From positions 1 to 26,083 of the IMG/VR virus record IMGVR_UViG_3300027323_000004: a DNA stretch of 26,083 bases; one strand, given 5' to 3'. Under the pieces are notes generated by a model. It saw only the letters and a program-made list of their open reading frames with translations. It was not told the origin of the DNA and searched no databases. The position numbers and the translations under genes were made by a program. The DNA is from a virus. Its lineage: Duplodnaviria; Caudoviricetes. Below are positions 5,838 to 26,083 of the stretch, piece by piece; position 1 is the stretch's first letter; every line of letters begins with the position of its first letter.

Positions 5838-7475
5838 ATGAGTAGCACATACGGTTTAGGTAGTGTATTAACAGGTGCATCACGCGCAATGCGTAACATT
5901 AAGGCCGATTATCGTGCTGATGAAACTTATAATCAGGGGTTAGAAGATGCAGAGCGATCACGCGAATACCAACAAAGTCGGCGTGAACGCCAGCAAGTTT
6001 TAGATGAAAGGAACGATGATTCTTATGTACGGGCTGATGTAAATTATGGCAGACAAGAAAAAACCTACCAGAGAGCGGAGATGGGAAGAAAGGTCAGAAG
6101 CGCTTTTATGATCTCTGGTGATATTTCTGGAATAATGCCACTTTATAACTCGATAGATGATGGCAACCAAATCACAAACATAGAAAAACCAAAAACCAAA
6201 AACGGTAAGTATTTAATTACTTTTCAGATAAATGGTCAAGATAAAACAGCGCCTATGAGTCGTGATGAAATCGGCATGGCTCTTACAGGCATAACAAATC
6301 CTAATGAAATAACAAGAATGGAAGCAGAGCAAGCGAAAGCAGTGCGAGCACAGGAAGACAAATTAGCGCAAATAGGTTTGCAAAATACCGGTAGTTTAGC
6401 CGTTGCCAACGTTAGAGCTGGTGGTGAGACCGGGGCAAGCAAAGCACAGGCACAACAGAATAAAATAAGTAAGGAGCGGGTAGATTATCACACAAAAAGA
6501 GGCGATATTACACAGACAGCACTAGATACAATGGGCTTTCAGTATGTATCTAAAGCTGACGCTTCTTCCCGGATAGGGGTGCTTGGTGTGGCTTACGAGA
6601 TTGCTAGAAATGGCGATAGAGCCGGTGCATCGCGTGACGCACAAAGAGACTTGCTTGTATATGCAAAACAAGCAGAAAAGATTGTAAACGAAGAGTTTGA
6701 AGAAGGTGTTGAAATAGGCGTTATCCCGGAAGATGAATGGAAAGAGGAGCGAGTTAGGCTTGTGCTGGAATCCATTGTCGATGAACGCTTAAACCAACTA
6801 CAGCAGACCGGTACAACTAACACAAAAAGCGAAACACAGCCTAAAAAACTGACGCAGGAGCAATACTATGAAAAAGCAAAAAAACTCGGTTGGCCAGACG
6901 ATATAATCCAGCAAAAAATGCAGGAAGATATTAAGGCAAATAAAGTTGAAACAAAGGCCAATAACGCTCCAATTGAAACGCCTGCGCCAGAAAATGCAGT
7001 GGCACAGGGTGGGTTAGAGCATGGTCAGACGGGTATTGACCCAGCAAAGGATACCTTGGACAAGGCTTTAGATACAACGGTTGTTGCAATGGCTGATGAT
7101 ACCGAAATTAGCGAACCAGAAAAGCCAGATCAGGGGTTATCAGGCGGGTATTCGTCTGGTATTACAAAATCAAAATCAAAGCTGGACGCAATTAAAGCAG
7201 ATATACAGGATTTATTGCCAGAGGAACCCGATTTTGGAGGGGGCATTTCTCAGATCAGAAAAAGACAGGTACACGGTAATAAGGTTAGAGGTGCGGCGCG
7301 GCAGGTCAAACAACGATTAAATAGCAGAACAGGTAATTTGAAAGGCTTGTCGCCTGAGACAGTCCGGCTTGCCTTGCTTGATAGTTCGTTAGTCAGAAAA
7401 TTAACGAAGAAAAAAATAGCCATTATTCGTAAGTATCTCAATAGTGAGAAAATCACAATTGCAAGTAATAATTAA
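5838..7475 (+). CDS. Internal virion / DNA ejection protein (medium)
   Basis: 545 aa, AAGG RBS, 'GLGSVLTGA' N-terminus and charged helical composition; assignment rests mainly on synteny. Confidence 0.55.
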   Translation: MSSTYGLGSVLTGASRAMRNIKADYRADETYNQGLEDAERSREYQQSRRERQQVLDERNDDSYVRADVNYGRQEKTYQRAEMGRKVRSAFMISGDISGIMPLYNSIDDGNQITNIEKPKTKNGKYLITFQINGQDKTAPMSRDEIGMALTGITNPNEITRMEAEQAKAVRAQEDKLAQIGLQNTGSLAVANVRAGGETGASKAQAQQNKISKERVDYHTKRGDITQTALDTMGFQYVSKADASSRIGVLGVAYEIARNGDRAGASRDAQRDLLVYAKQAEKIVNEEFEEGVEIGVIPEDEWKEERVRLVLESIVDERLNQLQQTGTTNTKSETQPKKLTQEQYYEKAKKLGWPDDIIQQKMQEDIKANKVETKANNAPIETPAPENAVAQGGLEHGQTGIDPAKDTLDKALDTTVVAMADDTEISEPEKPDQGLSGGYSSGITKSKSKLDAIKADIQDLLPEEPDFGGGISQIRKRQVHGNKVRGAARQVKQRLNSRTGNLKGLSPETVRLALLDSSLVRKLTKKKIAIIRKYLNSEKITIASNN

Positions 7476-7488
7476 AGAGGTTAAAAAA

Positions 7489-7770
7489 ATGAAATTAATA
7501 AATAATATGCTTAAAGGGTATCTTGAAAAACATGGCTATATAGTTTTTAAACCGCTTTGTGAAATACAAAAAATTGTTGAACATACAAGTGATGTAGAAG
7601 AAGTGAAGGTTGATCCGTTGTTTGAAGAAGCGTTTAGTATTGACGAAGATATTGCGATTCAACTTTATGATGCCAATGCATTAAATGCTGATCTTCAAAA
7701 AGAAATTAATGAACTTAAAAAAACCATGCATGTTGACACTGAACAAGCGATTGTTAAGTCTGCTTTGTGA
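7489..7770 (+). CDS. Hypothetical protein, paralogue of 18952-19239
   Basis: GAGG at 7477-7480 favours the ATG at 7489 (93 aa). Shares 'MK.INN.L..YLEKHGY' and 'SIDEDIA.QLYDANA.N..LQKE...LKK' with the - strand copy. Confidence 0.7.
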   Translation: MKLINNMLKGYLEKHGYIVFKPLCEIQKIVEHTSDVEEVKVDPLFEEAFSIDEDIAIQLYDANALNADLQKEINELKKTMHVDTEQAIVKSAL

Positions 7771-18951: not shown

Positions 18952-19239
18952 TCAATCTTTAACTTCAATATTAAGTAATTTTTTAAGAACATCAGCTTCT
19001 TTTTGCAAGACATTATTAAACGCATTGGCATCATAAAGTTGTTGTGCAATATCTTCATCTATGCTCATGGCTTCATCGACAATATCCGAATGGATTATTC
19101 CACGTAATTCAAGATGATCTTCAAATTCTGCCTGCGGTATCCGGTTAAGTATATGGTGGTACTGATCAAGGCTCGGCGCTTCGATGAAGTAGCCGTGTTT
19201 TTCGAGGTATCGCCTAAGTAGGTTGTTAATTATTTTCAT
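18952..19239 (-). CDS. Hypothetical protein, paralogue of 7489-7770
   Basis: 95 aa, ATGA-coupled to the upstream gene, with clear protein similarity to the + strand copy. Confidence 0.7.
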   Translation of the reverse strand: MKIINNLLRRYLEKHGYFIEAPSLDQYHHILNRIPQAEFEDHLELRGIIHSDIVDEAMSIDEDIAQQLYDANAFNNVLQKEADVLKKLLNIEVKD

Positions 19240-20501: not shown

Positions 20502-20546
20502 TTGACATGGAAGAGGTCGGTGGTTCGAATCCACTCGTGCCTACCA
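20502..20546 (+). mobile_element. attP: attP core: 3' half of tRNA-Val(GAC), not a complete tRNA
   Basis: TTGACAT anticodon loop, T-arm GGTGG-TTCGAAT-CCACT, acceptor 3' strand CGTGCCT-A-CCA. No 5' half upstream. Lies about 70 bp past the integrase stop. Confidence 0.88.
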
Positions 20547-20550
20547 ATTA

Positions 20551-20614: not shown

Positions 20615-21655
20615 CTACATTGAAATTTCTGTCCATTTTACTGAATCGTCGTCTAAATACACATCTGTCATGCTTTCTTTTGCATGTCCTAATAAAGCCT
20701 GAATAAATGCTTTAGAATATCCTTGTTGTTCATATTGTCTTGCTCCCAGTGATCTAATTTCATGGAAGGTTACGTTTTCTACGCCTGCCAATTTTGCATA
20801 TTTGGCAAAAGTCTTGCTGAGAAAGTCCGGTTTTACGCTGTTATCCAGTTTTTGTTTATCGTTTGCTCTACGTTTTGAATGACGATGCAGGATATAAGGG
20901 GAGAGTGGAACGGTTTTTGTGGCTTTAATAGACTTTGATAATTCAGGCCACATTAAAATTTTGAGATTAGCGGATTCTTTACCGGCTGATTTTGATTGCT
21001 GAATGTAAAAATAACTGCCTTTAATATCTGCGTAACGCATGGCACACAGATCACCACGCCGCTGCAAGCTAATCCTGGCTAATTCCATAGTGTTTTTGAA
21101 CCACTGGTCTGCTACATCATGTATTAGCTTGTAAGATACGCCTGTAAGCCGCTCTCGCTGTCTTTTAGGTGCGCGCTTACGCAAGGTTGCTTCGGCACAG
21201 TTAAATTGTACTAAGCCCTCAGAAATGGCGTATTTGAATATGTCTATCCACAGTTGACGGTGCTTGATGTAGGAATGCGGTTTAAATCTGGCTAAAAAAT
21301 CTTTCAGGCTCAATACGGTAACGTGCTGTATTGGGGGGAATTGCCCCTTGTATTGGTTTAATTTTTGTTTAATTGCCTTAATAGTTACTGGTCTATATTC
21401 TTTTGTTGGCAAATAATCTTTAACAAAATCATCTAATAGCGTGTCAAAATCTCCAGCTGTGCCTAATAAACCATAATCACACTGTTTTAATAATTGTGCG
21501 TTGGTGTCTTTTGCCAGTCTTATTGCTTCTGCGCGTGGCCGATTAACCGATATGGCACGTTTTGTAATCGGGTGAATGTATTTGAAGTAGCGACCATTAG
21601 GATAAAGGTTATCTGGCAGGTCGAGATTCCGTTTTTGTCGTCTGGGCATTGACAT
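20615..21655 (-). CDS. int: Lambda-type phage integrase (tyrosine recombinase)
   Basis: N-terminal arm-binding domain 'DLPDNLY....YFKYIHP.T'; catalytic QRRGDL, QQSKS, FHEIRSL, LLGH and DVY; adjacent to attP. Confidence 0.93.
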   Translation of the reverse strand: MSMPRRQKRNLDLPDNLYPNGRYFKYIHPITKRAISVNRPRAEAIRLAKDTNAQLLKQCDYGLLGTAGDFDTLLDDFVKDYLPTKEYRPVTIKAIKQKLNQYKGQFPPIQHVTVLSLKDFLARFKPHSYIKHRQLWIDIFKYAISEGLVQFNCAEATLRKRAPKRQRERLTGVSYKLIHDVADQWFKNTMELARISLQRRGDLCAMRYADIKGSYFYIQQSKSAGKESANLKILMWPELSKSIKATKTVPLSPYILHRHSKRRANDKQKLDNSVKPDFLSKTFAKYAKLAGVENVTFHEIRSLGARQYEQQGYSKAFIQALLGHAKESMTDVYLDDDSVKWTEISM

Positions 21656-21658
21656 AGA

Positions 21659-21853
21659 TTAACCCCTTAACATGGTGTTTTTCAAATTATCATCCGGAAC
21701 ACGCTCATTTTCGATGTGGGCGTAATAAGTGCCGGTCACGATCCTTTCCCCTGGAATCACCCCTAAGTCTATGTATCGTTTAAAAGTATTACTAGACACC
21801 TGAAATGAATCAGGCGTTTGTAAGTACTCTTGATATTTGACTTTTTTTATCAT
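21659..21853 (-). CDS. Probable excisionase (winged HTH)
   Basis: 64 aa directly upstream of int; 'SSNTFKRYIDLGVIPGERIVTGTYY' is Xis-like. Confidence 0.7.
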   Translation of the reverse strand: MIKKVKYQEYLQTPDSFQVSSNTFKRYIDLGVIPGERIVTGTYYAHIENERVPDDNLKNTMLRG

Positions 21854-21871
21854 GGCAAATATTAAATATCT

Positions 21872-22168
21872 TTATATTGCTCTAACAGGCGGCATTGATT
21901 TTCGGATACCCGCTAAAATACCAGACATGCCAATTCGTTCTTTCCACAATTCGCCATCAACAATCACGCGATACTGATCTATACGGCCAGACTTCATCAG
22001 TTCAAACAAATGCACTTCTTCGCCAAAGTCGTAATTTGTTATTAATATTGATTTTCGTAGTTCTGGTAATTCTTTAGGATACTCAGGCGTTAGTGATTCC
22101 AGGCGTATTCGCTCCTTCGCTGATCTCATTGCCGCGCACTGCTTCGCTTTTGCTGTTTGTCTGTACAT
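21872..22168 (-). CDS. Conserved phage hypothetical protein
   Basis: 98 aa; 'AAMRSAKERIRL...YP.ELPELR...YDFG...RID.YRV.VDG..W'. Confidence 0.65.
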   Translation of the reverse strand: MYRQTAKAKQCAAMRSAKERIRLESLTPEYPKELPELRKSILITNYDFGEEVHLFELMKSGRIDQYRVIVDGELWKERIGMSGILAGIRKSMPPVRAI

Positions 22169-22215
22169 TATTTACTCAGCACCTTGCAAGCTCTTCATAT
22201 TCTTCTGTTATAAAC

Positions 22216-22857
22216 CTAAAACATTGCAGCCTGTCTAGTCTCACGGTCAAACCGTTCCATAGCTGCATCGTAATAATCTTTGTCAATTTCACACCCTACG
22301 AAGTCACAGCCAAAGTAATGGGCGGCTATTGCACTGCTCATTGATCCAGCATGTGTGTCTAATATTCTCATGTCAGGCGTGGCATAGTTTTTTAAGAGCC
22401 ACTTATAAAGTTGCACAGGTTTTTGTGTTGGGTGTATTCTGTTTTCTGGTTGTTGTTTTTTAAAACCATTCCATAACCATTCAAACATCATTGCTGGCTT
22501 ATCTAATGTTGTCGATGCAAGTTCAAAACGGGAATAATTGCCAGAAGTTTTTTTATCCCAACAGATCACACCTCTTGACGGCCAAACCTGTTTAAAATAA
22601 TTAGCTCCCCATATTATTTGCTCATTAGACACTCTTTTTAGCTCTTCAAAATATTCTGTATTTGGGGGGCATTTATCCCACTCTGGACTATGGTAATTTT
22701 TATCTATTGGCGAACTCCACCTATCGCTATTAGCTGCCCCGCTTTGCCCTTTAATCCCAATGCCATAAGGCGGATCAACAATAGCCAAATCAAAGCTATT
22801 ATCAGGCTGGTTAGCCATGTACTCCATACAATCAATATTTAGTAATTCTATTGTCAT
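22216..22857 (-). CDS. DNA N6-adenine/N4-cytosine methyltransferase, beta class (cassette 1)
   Basis: 'DCMEYM...FDLAIVDPPY', 'IIWGANYF', 'HPTQKPV.LY.WLL' and 'ILDTHAGSMSS...GCEIDKDYY'. Confidence 0.93.
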   Translation of the reverse strand: MTIELLNIDCMEYMANQPDNSFDLAIVDPPYGIGIKGQSGAANSDRWSSPIDKNYHSPEWDKCPPNTEYFEELKRVSNEQIIWGANYFKQVWPSRGVICWDKKTSGNYSRFELASTTLDKPAMMFEWLWNGFKKQQPENRIHPTQKPVQLYKWLLKNYATPDMRILDTHAGSMSSAIAAHYFGCDFVGCEIDKDYYDAAMERFDRETRQAAMF

Positions 22858-22877
22858 TCTGTTATCCTAAAAACGGT

Positions 22878-22938
22878 TTATAACAAGGCAATTAAGCGCG
22901 ACGGCAAAACACGCCGCGCCTTATTTTTATCGTTAGTT
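22878..22938 (+). repeat. attC: attC-like site 1
   Basis: R'' TTATAAC - AAGGC - L'' AATTAAGC - GCGACGGC AAAACAC GCCGCG - L' CCTTATT - TTTATC - R' GTTAGTT (61 bp). Confidence 0.85.
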
Positions 22939-23106
22939 GCCTAAGCTCGCATCTTTGATTCTGCGTTTGCGAAGCCTGGTCTCATGTTTCCGCATCTCAT
23001 CCAAATCATCTTTATGCACATAAAAATCATTACGTTTAAACAAACCGCCCGCGCTTAATCTAGCGCGGCGGTCTGACTGTCTTTGTTTGTTTGTTAATGC
23101 AGTCAT
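22933..23106 (-). CDS. 57-aa basic protein, putative ribbon-helix-helix-like regulator (cassette 2); missing from the ORF track
   Basis: MTALTNKQRQSDRRARLSAGGLFKRNDFYVHKDDLDEMRKHETRLRKRRIKDASLGN*. ATGA-coupled to the upstream gene; its TAA stop lies in R' of attC1. Confidence 0.7.
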   Translation of the reverse strand: MTALTNKQRQSDRRARLSAGGLFKRNDFYVHKDDLDEMRKHETRLRKRRIKDASLGN

Positions 23107-23360
23107 TTTATTAATTTTCCGGCTCCTAACTCATTGTATCTAAACTCCATGCGAGCGCCATTTTTACCATAAGCTGTAGCATCTATTGTTTGCTTAAATC
23201 TTGTCAGTGCAGCGTCACTACTAACGTTGTCTGGTATATTAGTTATACGCCTTATCTGCAAAGATGCGCTATTAAAATCACAGGTTTCAGATCGTGGATC
23301 ACCGAGGGTTGTACAAACAGACATTATTTTTACTGTTGTTTTTACCATTATTGATTTCAT
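23103..23360 (-). CDS. Hypothetical protein (cassette 2)
   Basis: 85 aa, tightly packed between its neighbours, with a GGAAG RBS-like sequence upstream. Confidence 0.6.
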   Translation of the reverse strand: MKSIMVKTTVKIMSVCTTLGDPRSETCDFNSASLQIRRITNIPDNVSSDAALTRFKQTIDATAYGKNGARMEFRYNELGAGKLIK

Positions 23361-23362
23361 TT

Positions 23363-23800
23363 TTAATCTCTTCCTTCGATTGCTGCTTTGTAACCAGCGC
23401 TATTTTTTATGCGCTCATGCTTTTCAGTTTCTTCGCGTTCGTATTCTGCTTTTTCTTTTTCAACTTCTTCTGGGTATTTTTCAGCCCACTCTTTTTGAGC
23501 TTCTTCAAGAGCCATTCTTGCTTTTATTATCCGGCTAGGGTCTGAGTAGCTAGCATTTTCGGCATTGTATAACTCACTCATTGCTTTGCCGATTATTTGA
23601 CTATGGTCTTTTTCTGTCTGAGTACGCTCATCAATGTTTTCGATTTTGTATGATAAGCACTCGCCTTTGCCTGCTTTAAGCGTTGCTGCTTTTATCTGAT
23701 CAAACATTGGATCAGATATGCCACCAGGAAATTTATCAGTTATATTAATAATCTCAGTATGGCCTTCAGGTCTTTTGATTTTTATAGTTGTTTTTCTCAT
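23363..23800 (-). CDS. Hypothetical charged protein (first gene of cassette 2)
   Basis: A strong RBS GGAGAAGGA favours the ATG at 23800 (MRKTTIKIKRPEG..., 145 aa) over the tracked TTG start. Confidence 0.7.
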   Translation of the reverse strand: MRKTTIKIKRPEGHTEIINITDKFPGGISDPMFDQIKAATLKAGKGECLSYKIENIDERTQTEKDHSQIIGKAMSELYNAENASYSDPSRIIKARMALEEAQKEWAEKYPEEVEKEKAEYEREETEKHERIKNSAGYKAAIEGRD

Positions 23801-23847
23801 ATCCTTCTCCGTTTTTTGGTTTCGCCCTTTGCTCAACCTATAACTAT

Positions 23848-23876
23848 ATATTACTCCTGTTACCGGTAACAGTCAA
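23848..23876 (-). promoter_or_regulatory. Sigma70-like promoter with a 16-bp palindromic operator
   Basis: TTGACT-N17-TAATAT on the - strand; perfect palindrome CTGTTACCGGTAACAG (23857-23872) covers the spacer and the edge of the -35. Confidence 0.72.
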
Positions 23877-23920
23877 GAGATAAACGCCAAATAATAGAAA
23901 TAAGTTACAAATAAAACGGC

Positions 23921-23992
23921 AACTAACAAAACGCTGCACCGGAATTTTGTTACGCTGCGCTTCACAAAATCCCGTGAGCTGCATCGTTATGC
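23921..23992 (+). repeat. attC: attC-like site 2
   Basis: AACTAAC - AAAAC - GCTGCACC - GGAATTTTGT...ACAAAATCC - CGTGAGC - TGCATC - GTTATGC (72 bp). Confidence 0.85.
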
Positions 23993-24304
23993 GTCAGGAA
24001 CATTTACCGTATGCTCAAAGTCAATGTAGTCGCCACAATGTTTATCTCCACTGCATAAACACGCACCTGGATGATTTAAACGACCACGCTTTGAGCAAAA
24101 TTGCACCATCGCCGGGAGTGTCGGGTCATACGAAACATCGCGCAACCAAAATACCTGGCCGTTAGCAGTGGCCTGTTTCTTGGCTATATAATTATCAGTA
24201 AAATCAAGGAATTTACAGGCATTGAAACGCATAACAAGGCATTCAACTGGACTTGCTGTTTCAGTGGGCTTTTTAACTTCTGTGTTTTCGTTCATGTTCG
24301 TCAT
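23987..24304 (-). CDS. Cys-rich hypothetical protein (cassette 3) whose start lies inside attC3
   Basis: GGAG at 24314-24317, then ATG 24304 (MTNMNENTE...); TAA stop in R' of attC2. Confidence 0.65.
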   Translation of the reverse strand: MTNMNENTEVKKPTETASPVECLVMRFNACKFLDFTDNYIAKKQATANGQVFWLRDVSYDPTLPAMVQFCSKRGRLNHPGACLCSGDKHCGDYIDFEHTVNVPDA

Positions 24305-24359
24305 GTTATTTATCTCCAGCGCTCGCATTCCGCAAGCAAGTTAATTTAATCGGTTATAA
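24229..24359 (+). repeat. attC: attC-like site 3 (long)
   Basis: GCATAAC - AAGGC - ATTCAACT - GGACTTGC...GCAAGCA - AGTTAAT - TTAATCG - GTTATAA (131 bp). L''/L' pair perfectly with the canonical extra C. Confidence 0.82.
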
Positions 24360-24668
24360 CTTAACACCCAAATCATCAGCCATCATGTTGCCATTTATGT
24401 CTGTAAACCCATCAATCCATGTAAACAGCTCACCGATTGCCGGACCCTCGTCATCAAATAATCCGTAATCTGACATTAATGATCTTGCTGCTTTACATAT
24501 ATCAGTGCAATCATCGCACTGTTTAAATGTCATAAAATCACCATCCCATTTACCAGTGATGTTTAAATATTTATCACCTGGCTTTATTGTTTTATGACAC
24601 TCGCAGCATTTATGCTCAATTCTTGCTGTCGGCGTTGTTTCGTTGTAAATTGTCGGTAAATCGCACAT
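24354..24668 (-). CDS. Phage Zn-finger protein (cassette 4)
   Basis: 'TARIEHKCCECHKTIKPGDKY....GKWDGDF.TFKQCDDC'; TAA stop in R' of attC3. Confidence 0.75.
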   Translation of the reverse strand: MCDLPTIYNETTPTARIEHKCCECHKTIKPGDKYLNITGKWDGDFMTFKQCDDCTDICKAARSLMSDYGLFDDEGPAIGELFTWIDGFTDINGNMMADDLGVKL

Positions 24669-24683
24669 GAATTTAATCCAAAG

Positions 24684-24771
24684 TTATAACAATAAAATTA
24701 ACGCAGACCGCCCATACGCTGTTTGGTTTCAACCAGGCTGTGCAGCGGCTGGTTATTAAAAGTCGTTATGT
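24684..24771 (+). repeat. attC: attC-like site 4
   Basis: TTATAAC - AATAA - AATTAACG - CAGACCGC...TGGTT TC AACCA...GCGGCT - GGTTATT - AAAAGTC - GTTATGT (88 bp). Confidence 0.8.
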
Positions 24772-25017
24772 TGTAACAATTCCGCCGCAGTACGGGCAGT
24801 AAACAACGCCATTATCAAGTATTTCACCACCCTCAAAATTCCAGCCATTGCCACACGTTGTTTGGTAATAACCATCGTTATCAAATGTCCAATTGCATTC
24901 ACGAGCCAGTTCGTCAACAGCCTCCCTTAGTATGTTTGCTGTTTTTCTGCTTGCTACATGCGGAGCCATTCCCCTGACTAAATCTCTACCAATATTTACA
25001 ATTTCAATTCTGTTCAT
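24766..25017 (-). CDS. Phage Zn-ribbon protein (cassette 5)
   Basis: 'CNW.....YYQTTCG...F...........YCPYCGG'; GGAG RBS; TAA stop in R' of attC4. Confidence 0.75.
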   Translation of the reverse strand: MNRIEIVNIGRDLVRGMAPHVASRKTANILREAVDELARECNWTFDNDGYYQTTCGNGWNFEGGEILDNGVVYCPYCGGIVTT

Positions 25018-25031
25018 AATTTAAACTCCAA

Positions 25032-25105
25032 ACATAACAAGGCGCATTAAGTCGGACATTTTGTCCGCTGCGCTCCCAAAATTCCGCTTATGCGCGACGT
25101 TATAT
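25032..25105 (+). repeat. attC: attC-like site 5
   Basis: ACATAAC - AAGGCG - CATTAAGT - CGGACATTTTG...CAAAATTCC - GCTTATG - CGCGAC - GTTATAT (74 bp). Confidence 0.85.
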
Positions 25106-25480
25106 GGCTATAGGTAATTCGCCGTCAGGCAAAATCCACAGCCAGTAAATATTGTGGTAATCCTGCACTTTTGTAACTGCTGGATAAAATTCGACTCCAG
25201 TAGCGTCGTCACCAAACAATTCGTTTTTTATCGCCTGCATTTCGCGCCAGTGGTTGGGTATCGGTTTATCATCATGCCGCTGCACCATTGCTTTTATTGC
25301 AGTTATTCCGCCAGTCATATTCGCGTTATCATCAATCATCACAACATATCGGTTGTTCTTAAATGCTCTCGTCATCCAATCAGGATGGCTTTGCAAATTC
25401 AAATCAACAGGCAACAATTTACCTCTCGGTTTTTTCAGTAGCTTTCGTGCTGCTGATTTTTGTGCTTTATTTCTACTCAT
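25100..25480 (-). CDS. Conserved phage protein, DUF7694-like (cassette 6)
   Basis: 'QRHDDKPI..HWREMQAIKNELFG....GVEFYP......D..NIYWLW'; TAA stop in R' of attC5. Confidence 0.7.
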   Translation of the reverse strand: MSRNKAQKSAARKLLKKPRGKLLPVDLNLQSHPDWMTRAFKNNRYVVMIDDNANMTGGITAIKAMVQRHDDKPIPNHWREMQAIKNELFGDDATGVEFYPAVTKVQDYHNIYWLWILPDGELPIAI

Positions 25481-25491
25481 GTAAAATCACC

Positions 25492-25516
25492 ATATAACAA
25501 GGCGGTCAACTCGGAC
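25492..25516 (+). repeat. attC-like half site 6 (left arm only)
   Basis: ATATAAC - AAGGC - GGTCAACT - CGGAC, with no correctly spaced L'/R' downstream. Confidence 0.7.
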
Positions 25517-25527
25517 ATTCATTCTCA

Positions 25528-25716
25528 TTAAAATGCTCCTGTAGCTATTTTTTGTACGCTAGACCCTGGTACTCCGGTTATTCGGCTTATGCCTTCAAGC
25601 GTCAAAAATCCATGATTATTTACTTTACCAGTGCCTCGGCAAAACCAGTATAAATACGTAACCAGGCAACGGGTTGCTCTGCTGTGTTTTAGTCTGTTAT
25701 TTGTGTGATTAGTCAT
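25528..25716 (-). CDS. Small HTH-like protein
   Basis: 'TLEGISRITGVPGSSVQKIATG' is HTH-like; TAATG-coupled to the upstream gene. Confidence 0.55.
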   Translation of the reverse strand: MTNHTNNRLKHSRATRCLVTYLYWFCRGTGKVNNHGFLTLEGISRITGVPGSSVQKIATGAF

Positions 25717-26081
25717 TAAGCAGCCTTATCCTGTTGCAGTTTTATATACAATTCATCAACCGCTTTTAGCAGTTTCTTTTGTACGCGAAGCGCCACCGCT
25801 TTCAGTTTTTTATCCTCAACTAACGGCATGTTTTGTATAGCTGCTTGGACATCATCAGCGTAATCACAAAGCACCCGTTCCGGGGACAATTCATTTGGTT
25901 TTTCAATATGCTTTTTAATTAATTCTGGTTGCGCATCTACTGGCTGCTCAATACGTTTCGCTTCAACACGTTCTGCTTCAAGTCTTTCAGCTTCAATACG
26001 CAGATCTTCAACACGTTCTGCTTCAAGTCTTTCAGCTTCAATACGCAGATCTTCAACACGTTCTGCTTCAAGTCTTTCAGC
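25716..26081 (-). CDS. C-terminal part of a coiled-coil phage protein (5'-truncated by the window edge; not in the ORF track)
   Basis: Open frame (AERLEAERVEDLRIE)x2-AERLEAERVEAKRIEQPVDAQ...KLQQDKAA*. Confidence 0.7.
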   Translation of the reverse strand, partial: AERLEAERVEDLRIEAERLEAERVEDLRIEAERLEAERVEAKRIEQPVDAQPELIKKHIEKPNELSPERVLCDYADDVQAAIQNMPLVEDKKLKAVALRVQKKLLKAVDELYIKLQQDKAA

Positions 26082-26083
26082 TT
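25961..26083. repeat. Perfect 45-bp in-frame tandem repeat (at least 2.7 copies)
   Basis: Unit CTTCAACACGTTCTGCTTCAAGTCTTTCAGCTTCAATACGCAGAT starts at 25961, 26006 and 26051, with a 15-bp sub-period. Confidence 0.95.

Follow-up and report, generated by a model that had tools for sequence, protein, structure and literature searches.

A reversed array of integron-type cassettes beside a putative attI-like docking site in a temperate phage genome

Introduction

In integrons, the integrase IntI cuts the folded bottom strand of a cassette's attC site at G^TT. The attC site of a circular cassette has matching R″ and R′ boxes, and insertion splits them, so that one half stands at each end of the inserted unit. 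Here we analyze a 26,083-nt stretch of DNA from a marine temperate phage (Duplodnaviria; Caudoviricetes; IMG/VR record IMGVR_UViG_3300027323_000004, positions 1 to 26,083), hereafter the window, in which six units with such ends follow one another to the right of an attI-like site, all with their genes reversed.

The closest described systems are known from publications that are each drawn on here in part. Cassettes are defined by their circular form (ACID, PMC2674596). IntI recombines the folded bottom strand, which fixes cassette orientation (Nivina 2016, PMC5027507), and its insertion targets also include double-stranded sites that are not attC but have a GWT core (10.1101/2022.09.11.507474). 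In phages, attC sites that recombine with IntI1 have been reported, as have Vibrio prophages carrying pieces of chromosomal integrons (Qi 2023, PMC9892861). Phage attC-site clusters without an integron integrase (CALINs) are already published; the novelty of the present locus lies in its reversed layout, in the junction evidence, and in a module consisting of the docking site and an adjoining open reading frame (ORF), ORF98.

Cassette ends and attC sites

A sequence-only reading of the window had proposed six cassettes with perfectly complementary ends. All six end pairs were recovered where it had placed them, as exact reverse complements that extend no further. Only five complete attC sites were found, the sixth site being without the GTT crossover. 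The units and their genes are as follows (end pairs given as left/right):

22208..22932, plus strand, cassette 1; ends 22207/22875 (10 nt); attC1 22878-22938 (E = 4.7e-9)
22216-22857, minus strand, N6/N4 DNA methyltransferase of cassette 1 (PF01555; families phrog_67 and phrog_23224)
22933..23986, plus strand, cassette 2; ends 22932/23918 (10 nt); attC2 23921-23992 (E = 4.6e-12)
23363-23800/23836, 23103-23360 and 22933-23106, minus strand, three ORFs of cassette 2
23987..24353, plus strand, cassette 3; ends 23986/24227 (9 nt); long attC3 24229-24359 (E = 6.6e-6)
start at 24328 (inside attC3) or 24232 (ATG in the R″ box), minus strand, ORF of cassette 3
24354..24765, plus strand, cassette 4; ends 24353/24681 (10 nt); attC4 24684-24771 (E = 5.3e-5)
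24354-24668, minus strand, 104-aa Cys-rich phage protein of cassette 4 (phrog_7314)
24766..25099, plus strand, cassette 5; ends 24765/25031 (8 nt); attC5 25032-25105 (E = 3.7e-7)
24766-25017, minus strand, 83-aa phage protein of cassette 5 (phrog_10312)
25100..25592, plus strand, cassette 6; ends 25099/25490 (9 nt); degenerate attC6 25492-25592 (E = 0.5)
25100-25480, minus strand, DUF7694 protein of cassette 6 (PF24746)

For the ORF of cassette 3, the ATG in the R″ box (24232) is the more likely start; a relative (L171) aligns to this ORF from residue 33 on.

Within a single linear attC site the R″/R′ match was, as had been claimed, much shorter (4, 4, 5, 5, and 5 nt in the five complete sites). 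Among the 720 possible pairings of left and right ends, the true one alone summed to 56 matched nucleotides (next best 51, mean 34.3). As a chance background, 199 GTTA words on both strands of window positions 1-22000 were searched for partners at a distance of 200-1100 nt; four had an 8-nt partner and none had one of at least 9 nt. When units 1-5 were circularized in silico, a check proposed in the same reading, the R-box stem grew to 8-13 pairs and the energy fell by 4-7 kcal/mol.

Matches of at least 8 nt were also present in 37 of 50 units of arrays in the candidate hosts (Gammaproteobacteria, described below; non-cognate pairs 3.1%) and in 35 of 48 units of other phage arrays (non-cognate pairs 5.8%), although both unit counts are approximate, some viral loci being near-duplicates (L030/L033 and L008/L009/L045). 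Matched ends are thus a normal and ordinary signature of integron cassettes and alone do not prove recency. The earlier claim that the array is recent or still active does not hold as argued from the ends; recent mobility rests on contig junctions instead.

The attC sites were detected with a covariance model trained solely on 33 attC sites of the candidate hosts, which was used in place of a first heuristic scanner that missed attC1 and scored attC4 low. Since its training sites were picked by a pairing heuristic, the covariation counts of the model are no independent evidence. It matched five sites spread over 2.3 kb of the window (E = 4.6e-12 to 5.3e-5), all with the minus strand, i.e. the coding strand, as the folding (bottom) strand; the minus strand also had the lower folding energy at all five. 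Each of the five shows the attC layout, with R″ (..AAC) and R′ (GTT..) around L″/L′ inverted repeats and extra bases on one arm. At attC6 the R″ and L boxes are present, the crossover G is lost, and the site fails against the model. With five attC sites in this span and no IntI in the sequence covered, the array is a CALIN, for which IntegronFinder takes at least two same-strand attC sites within 4 kb and no neighboring intI. Several metagenome-assembled genomes (MAGs) of candidate hosts hold sites 76-90% alike to attC1, attC2, attC4, and attC5. The model matches and these close relatives in integron arrays bear out the view that the units are integron cassettes and not terminators.

Junctions in sequencing runs

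All or some of the stretch is present in 11 of 12 listed sequencing runs; eight were examined, as contigs only and among the matches listed. Run X9 belongs to another study and is not marked as a possible source, while X4 and X5 may be source samples.

Two joints were seen in X9. In one contig (depth 3.6), an attC4-type site runs to 24764 and unit 1 follows from 22207, with five ambiguous letters (GTTAT) at the joint. The other (depth 6) contains unit 3 with attC3 and then a divergent methylase allele (17 differences over 134 nt); the 48 letters in between are the exact register of a cassette starting at G^TT. The X9 joints probably come from related phages rather than from this genome, and are no demonstration of excision from it.

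In X4 and X5, a unitig (24764-25102) coincides with cassette 5 within 1 and 3 nt, at a depth of 109 in X4 (neighbors 64 and 70) and 155 in X5 (neighbors 147 and 117), and different neighbors adjoin 1 nt left and 3 nt right of the G positions of this cassette. Another unitig in X4 begins at 24353, and this run has a variant of unit 4 as well. The positions of two unitig edges, 22198 and 22183, suggest a branch directly past the GTTATA of the left site. The X9 joints and the X4 and X5 unitig edges, together with the different cassettes docked in relatives (see below), support the proposal that the units move independently at G^TT. The same cassette boundaries beside different neighbors, likewise suggested as a check, were found for units 1 and 5 and for a variant methylase cassette, in every case at GTT.

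Docking site and ORF98

To the left of unit 1 lie the following two features:

22169..22213, plus strand, attI-like docking site (crossover G 22207); non-hairpin, conserved
21872..22168, minus strand, ORF98 (98 aa); 29 homologous proteins including itself; 221 clusters

No hairpin forms in the 45 nt to the left of unit 1 (z = +0.55), and an attC site at this position was ruled out by the attC model as well as by folding. Read on the minus strand, the dock consists of TAAC-N7-TAT and the palindrome CTTGCAAG, followed by the start of ORF98, which stands where intI would be in an integron. The same arrangement with a TGCAA palindrome precedes ORF98 homologues in all seven loci aligned, the window included, at different genome positions, and ORF98 is found behind the docking site throughout. 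Of the six other loci (L175, L176, L177, L026, L178, and L180), four are viral, one lies in a prophage and has a variant core, and one is on a Pseudoalteromonas plasmid; the seven dock sites are homologous and hence not independent counts.

Candidate attI sites next to intI in the hosts have the TAAC-N7-TA[TG] geometry as well (as a shared motif in 4 of 13 loci), and so does a Shewanella attI quoted in the part of Qi 2023 (PMC9892861) drawn on here; elsewhere in the window this geometry occurs at 3 of 207 TAAC words. Different cassettes are found at the dock in L175, L176, and L180, with matched ends of 12, 10, and 8 nt, respectively, and the one docked in L180 holds a canonical HNH gene. Because the site is conserved across seven loci and reused by different cassettes, the left end appears, on sequence comparison, to behave as a maintained dock rather than as a chance target. 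Two complete relatives with both dock and array gave no match to TIGR02249 (IntI).

In L178 (1800-2070), the prophage array has the variant cores GGTGG and GTTGG instead of GTTA, and an apparent empty cassette with 9-nt matched ends stands before the ORF98 homologue. Other reversed arrays end in non-hairpin TAAC-N7-TA[GT] sites without ORF98 (in L177, ahead of the ORF98 site, and, after a methylase, in L005, L018, L023, and L051).

ORF98 forms a family standing by itself, for which neither a Pfam family nor a solved relative nor an Atlas match above 0.8 was found. Its predicted model has a predicted local distance difference test (pLDDT) score of 68 and reached at best Z = 3.9 against solved chains, with no viral match. 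Among 400 genomes of the candidate host class, one gave a clear ORF98 match and one a marginal match.

Reversed gene orientation

All eight cassette ORFs lie on the minus strand, which is the folding strand, and are antisense to the canonical attC direction; the canonical architecture is absent. In five of the six units the last ORF ends within the GTTA (R′) of the left boundary, and in four units an ORF starts 18-27 nt behind R″. As a control, the longest ORF was canonical in 45 of 55 units of host loci (an approximate count), and three of the ten non-canonical units belong to a Mu-like prophage. In this prophage (Gam-like protein, late activator; L164 4720-5647, G022:C111), which belongs to a Thiotrichaceae MAG encoding IntI, three cassettes are reversed and have attC4-like sites. 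Small reversed ORFs with attC4-like sites also occur in a mostly canonical host array (L161 3776-4189 and 6450-6739). On a Vibrio plasmid, an attC5-like site follows a plus-strand gene, in the plus orientation of the window.

Via relatives of the cassette genes, 90 viral or metagenome loci were collected, 28 of which contained matches to the attC model. All but one of the 84 non-self matches (83/84) were on the strand of the query gene. The longest ORF was reversed in 42 of 49 units of viral loci, a count that is approximate because of near-duplicate loci and because for some units, such as L159 7418-7591, the longest-ORF rule selects the incorrect strand. The literature, searched by listings and largely outside subscription journals and the Qi 2023 supplements, which may give the gene orientation of the other 16 CALINs, yielded no account of a reversed layout in phage cassettes.

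Because the cassette genes face the dock, a cassette promoter (Pc) at the dock could not drive them. A promoter scan stayed at chance level (12 matches versus 11.2 expected). Perhaps cassette 2 has its own promoter; the promoter-like match in it (23876-23848) was not above chance. The leader of cassette 2 (window 23780-23932) is reused before a different gene in L173 (59-280), and a variant of this leader is joined to an attC4-type site in four runs (X1, X4, X5, and X7).

Phage and host context

The array is flanked by the following genes and elements:

20502..20549, plus strand, 3′ half of tRNA-Val, attP-like core; no whole tRNA
20615..21655, minus strand, lambda-type phage integrase (PF00589 and arm-binding PF09003)
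21659..21853, minus strand, 64-aa ORF from the ORF list, no family match; by its position a putative excisionase
25716..26083, minus strand, end of a YqaJ/lambda-exonuclease gene, upstream in the early operon and continued in contig L001

In the left part of the window lie genes for virion and tail proteins and for a polyvalent protein of 3640 aa. A second assembly (contig L001), identical over 15,466 nt, continues upstream with the exonuclease, a Bet-like gene, and a LexA/cI-type repressor, and the window plus L001/L083 covers about 31.5 kb of phage sequence. The lambda-type integrase and these L001 genes make the array part of a temperate phage's early operon. Since phage genes lie on both sides of the tRNA-Val 3′ half, the contig represents the unintegrated form; tRNA 5′ halves were seen as loose ends in sequencing runs. 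An Rfam scan yielded a single sub-threshold match, on the tRNA fragment, and none on the array.

Identical copies of 45 nt from the tRNA core were found at 33 loci in 29 MAGs of Gammaproteobacteria, marine and other, which suggests such bacteria as the host. Nineteen of the 29 MAGs encode IntI above the cut-off. No IntI was found in the window or in a 23-kb overlapping record, and no intI adjoins the array in this phage record, which is estimated to be 43% complete. The integrase at 20615..21655 was rejected as IntI, scoring 13 bits with TIGR02249 against a cut-off of 265. Searches of IMG/VR with the integrase, the unit-5 DNA pattern, and the unit-5 protein matched the identical record alone, and a cultured-phage collection gave short methylase matches only.

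Two similar short ORFs (7444-7770, plus strand, and 18952-19239, minus strand) share the start ..INN.L..YLEKHGY.. and are inverted around the 3640-aa gene. The C-terminal part of the exonuclease gene (25933-26083) contains tandem 15-nt coding repeats, at which the assembly breaks.

Discussion

With a probability of roughly 70%, we favor the explanation that the IntI of the host inserts circles at 22207, that older cassettes shift to the right, and that the reversed genes join the early transcript of the phage. Acting in trans, host IntI would insert the cassettes singly. Newcomers would enter at the dock beside ORF98 and displace older cassettes rightwards, and the broken attC6 would accordingly mark the old end of the array. 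As the genes face the dock, transcription from the early promoter of the phage would read them collinearly with the recombination genes, xis, and int, making a Pc unnecessary.

Several observations weigh against this explanation. Only attC2 and attC5 fold better than shuffled sequences (z < −2.9), and attC3 at its minimum energy lacks the attC fold. The first extra base on the folding strand is A or C in four of the five sites, while in the attC sites described in the part of Nivina 2016 (PMC5027507) drawn on here it is G. Relatives of units 4 and 6 are mostly without attC (L002, L089-L091, and L097), and L177 has the dock with no matched cassette adjoining. The assignment of the host draws on the conserved tRNA stretch only, and a completeness of 43% leaves room for a phage recombinase outside the window. 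The sole other assembly found is the one identical over 15,466 nt, and each X9 joint comes from a single contig of low depth, detected at 85% likeness. Finally, neither a single-cassette circle junction nor a precise deletion, both of which the sequence-only reading had suggested looking for, turned up in the contigs of the eight runs among the matches listed, although contigs drop rare forms, so that missing circles and deletions are no evidence of absence.

That a recombinase encoded by the phage, in the unseen part of its genome or by co-infecting phages, moves real cassettes instead of host IntI is a minority possibility. The limited coverage of the phage (about 31.5 kb, with identical proteins on a 58,876-nt contig) leaves space for such an enzyme, but TIGR02249 matched nothing in the two complete relatives that carry this dock, and the attC sites closely resemble sites next to intI in the hosts. 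Slightly less probable still is that the units were once inserted by IntI, are now frozen, and are swapped by Red-type homologous recombination at similar attC boundaries. An exonuclease and a Bet-like protein are indeed encoded upstream, attC4-type sequence recurs in the same communities, and attC6 is broken. Against such swapping, the neighbors of unit 1, the dock here and an attC4-type site in X9, share only 5 nt; those of cassette 5 change so close to its G positions that homology is too little; and six of six ends are still exact.

It is hardly credible that the hairpins are terminators or RNA-processing signals and the ends match by chance. The sites do lie between co-directional genes, and homologous genes elsewhere are without attC, but this account is at odds with the single best pairing among 720 and with the matches to the host-trained model and to attC sites next to intI; on the minus (coding) strand, a terminator scan picked out not one of the five sites, and one ORF reads through attC3. 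Capture of the whole array as a single block from a host integron, for which the Vibrio prophages with chromosomal integron pieces reported in Qi 2023 (PMC9892861, in the part drawn on here) offer a precedent, is just as improbable, given that the genes are phage-type and reversed, unlike most host cassettes, that the host loci compared contain none of the ten non-methylase ORFs searched for, and that other phages have the dock-ORF98 module with different cassettes.

Within insertion by host IntI, a bolder idea can be put forward only tentatively: the dock and ORF98, which would regulate or assist host IntI, might form a portable phage integron without an integrase that collects back-to-front cassettes of accessory genes and trades them, gene by gene, between co-occurring phages. 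The dock-ORF98 module offers a concrete site and protein for testing.

The array provides a site-specific route to phage mosaicism, along which small early genes are swapped at single-base precision. The swapped genes include an anti-restriction-type methylase, and the enzyme involved is probably that of the host, better known for collecting anti-phage and resistance genes.

Comparison with known systems

The locus resembles the phage CALINs of Qi 2023 (PMC9892861) in being an attC cluster without intI in a phage, and phage TJE1 in that study has a methyltransferase cassette of the same families as here (phrog_67 and phrog_23224). The three attC sites of TJE1 are canonical to its genes (checked on the sequence, L182 1-1520), whereas here every gene is reversed; that the same methylase family occurs in both orientations bears on the open question of cassette genesis. 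The TJE1 ORFs run about 30 nt into their own attC sites. For the CALINs of virulent phages, the part of Qi 2023 considered gives neither an attI-like dock nor population evidence of reshuffling. In phage H101, no attC match was obtained in the first 50 kb.

With integron cassettes in general (PMC2674596 and PMC5027507, each in the part used), the units share the R″-L″-L′-R′ layout, the G^TT boundary, ends complementary as in the circular form by which cassettes are defined, and, at the five complete sites, one strand of lower folding energy. They differ from canonical cassettes in that the genes are on the folding strand and start behind or inside their own attC, with no Pc or intI adjoining. 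The sedentary chromosomal integrons in MAGs of marine Gammaproteobacteria (e.g. G012 and G003) are alike in their attC sites (76-90%), cognate ends, and candidate attI sites of the TAAC-N7-TA[TG] type; they have intI beside attI and mostly canonical genes, whereas here ORF98 takes the place of intI. The attG sites and single attC sites lacking integron integrases (SALINs), as far as the portion of the report drawn on here describes them (10.1101/2022.09.11.507474), are alike in having a GWT core at a non-attC site, which the GTT at 22207 fits; the dock described here differs in being conserved over seven loci and reused for different cassettes.

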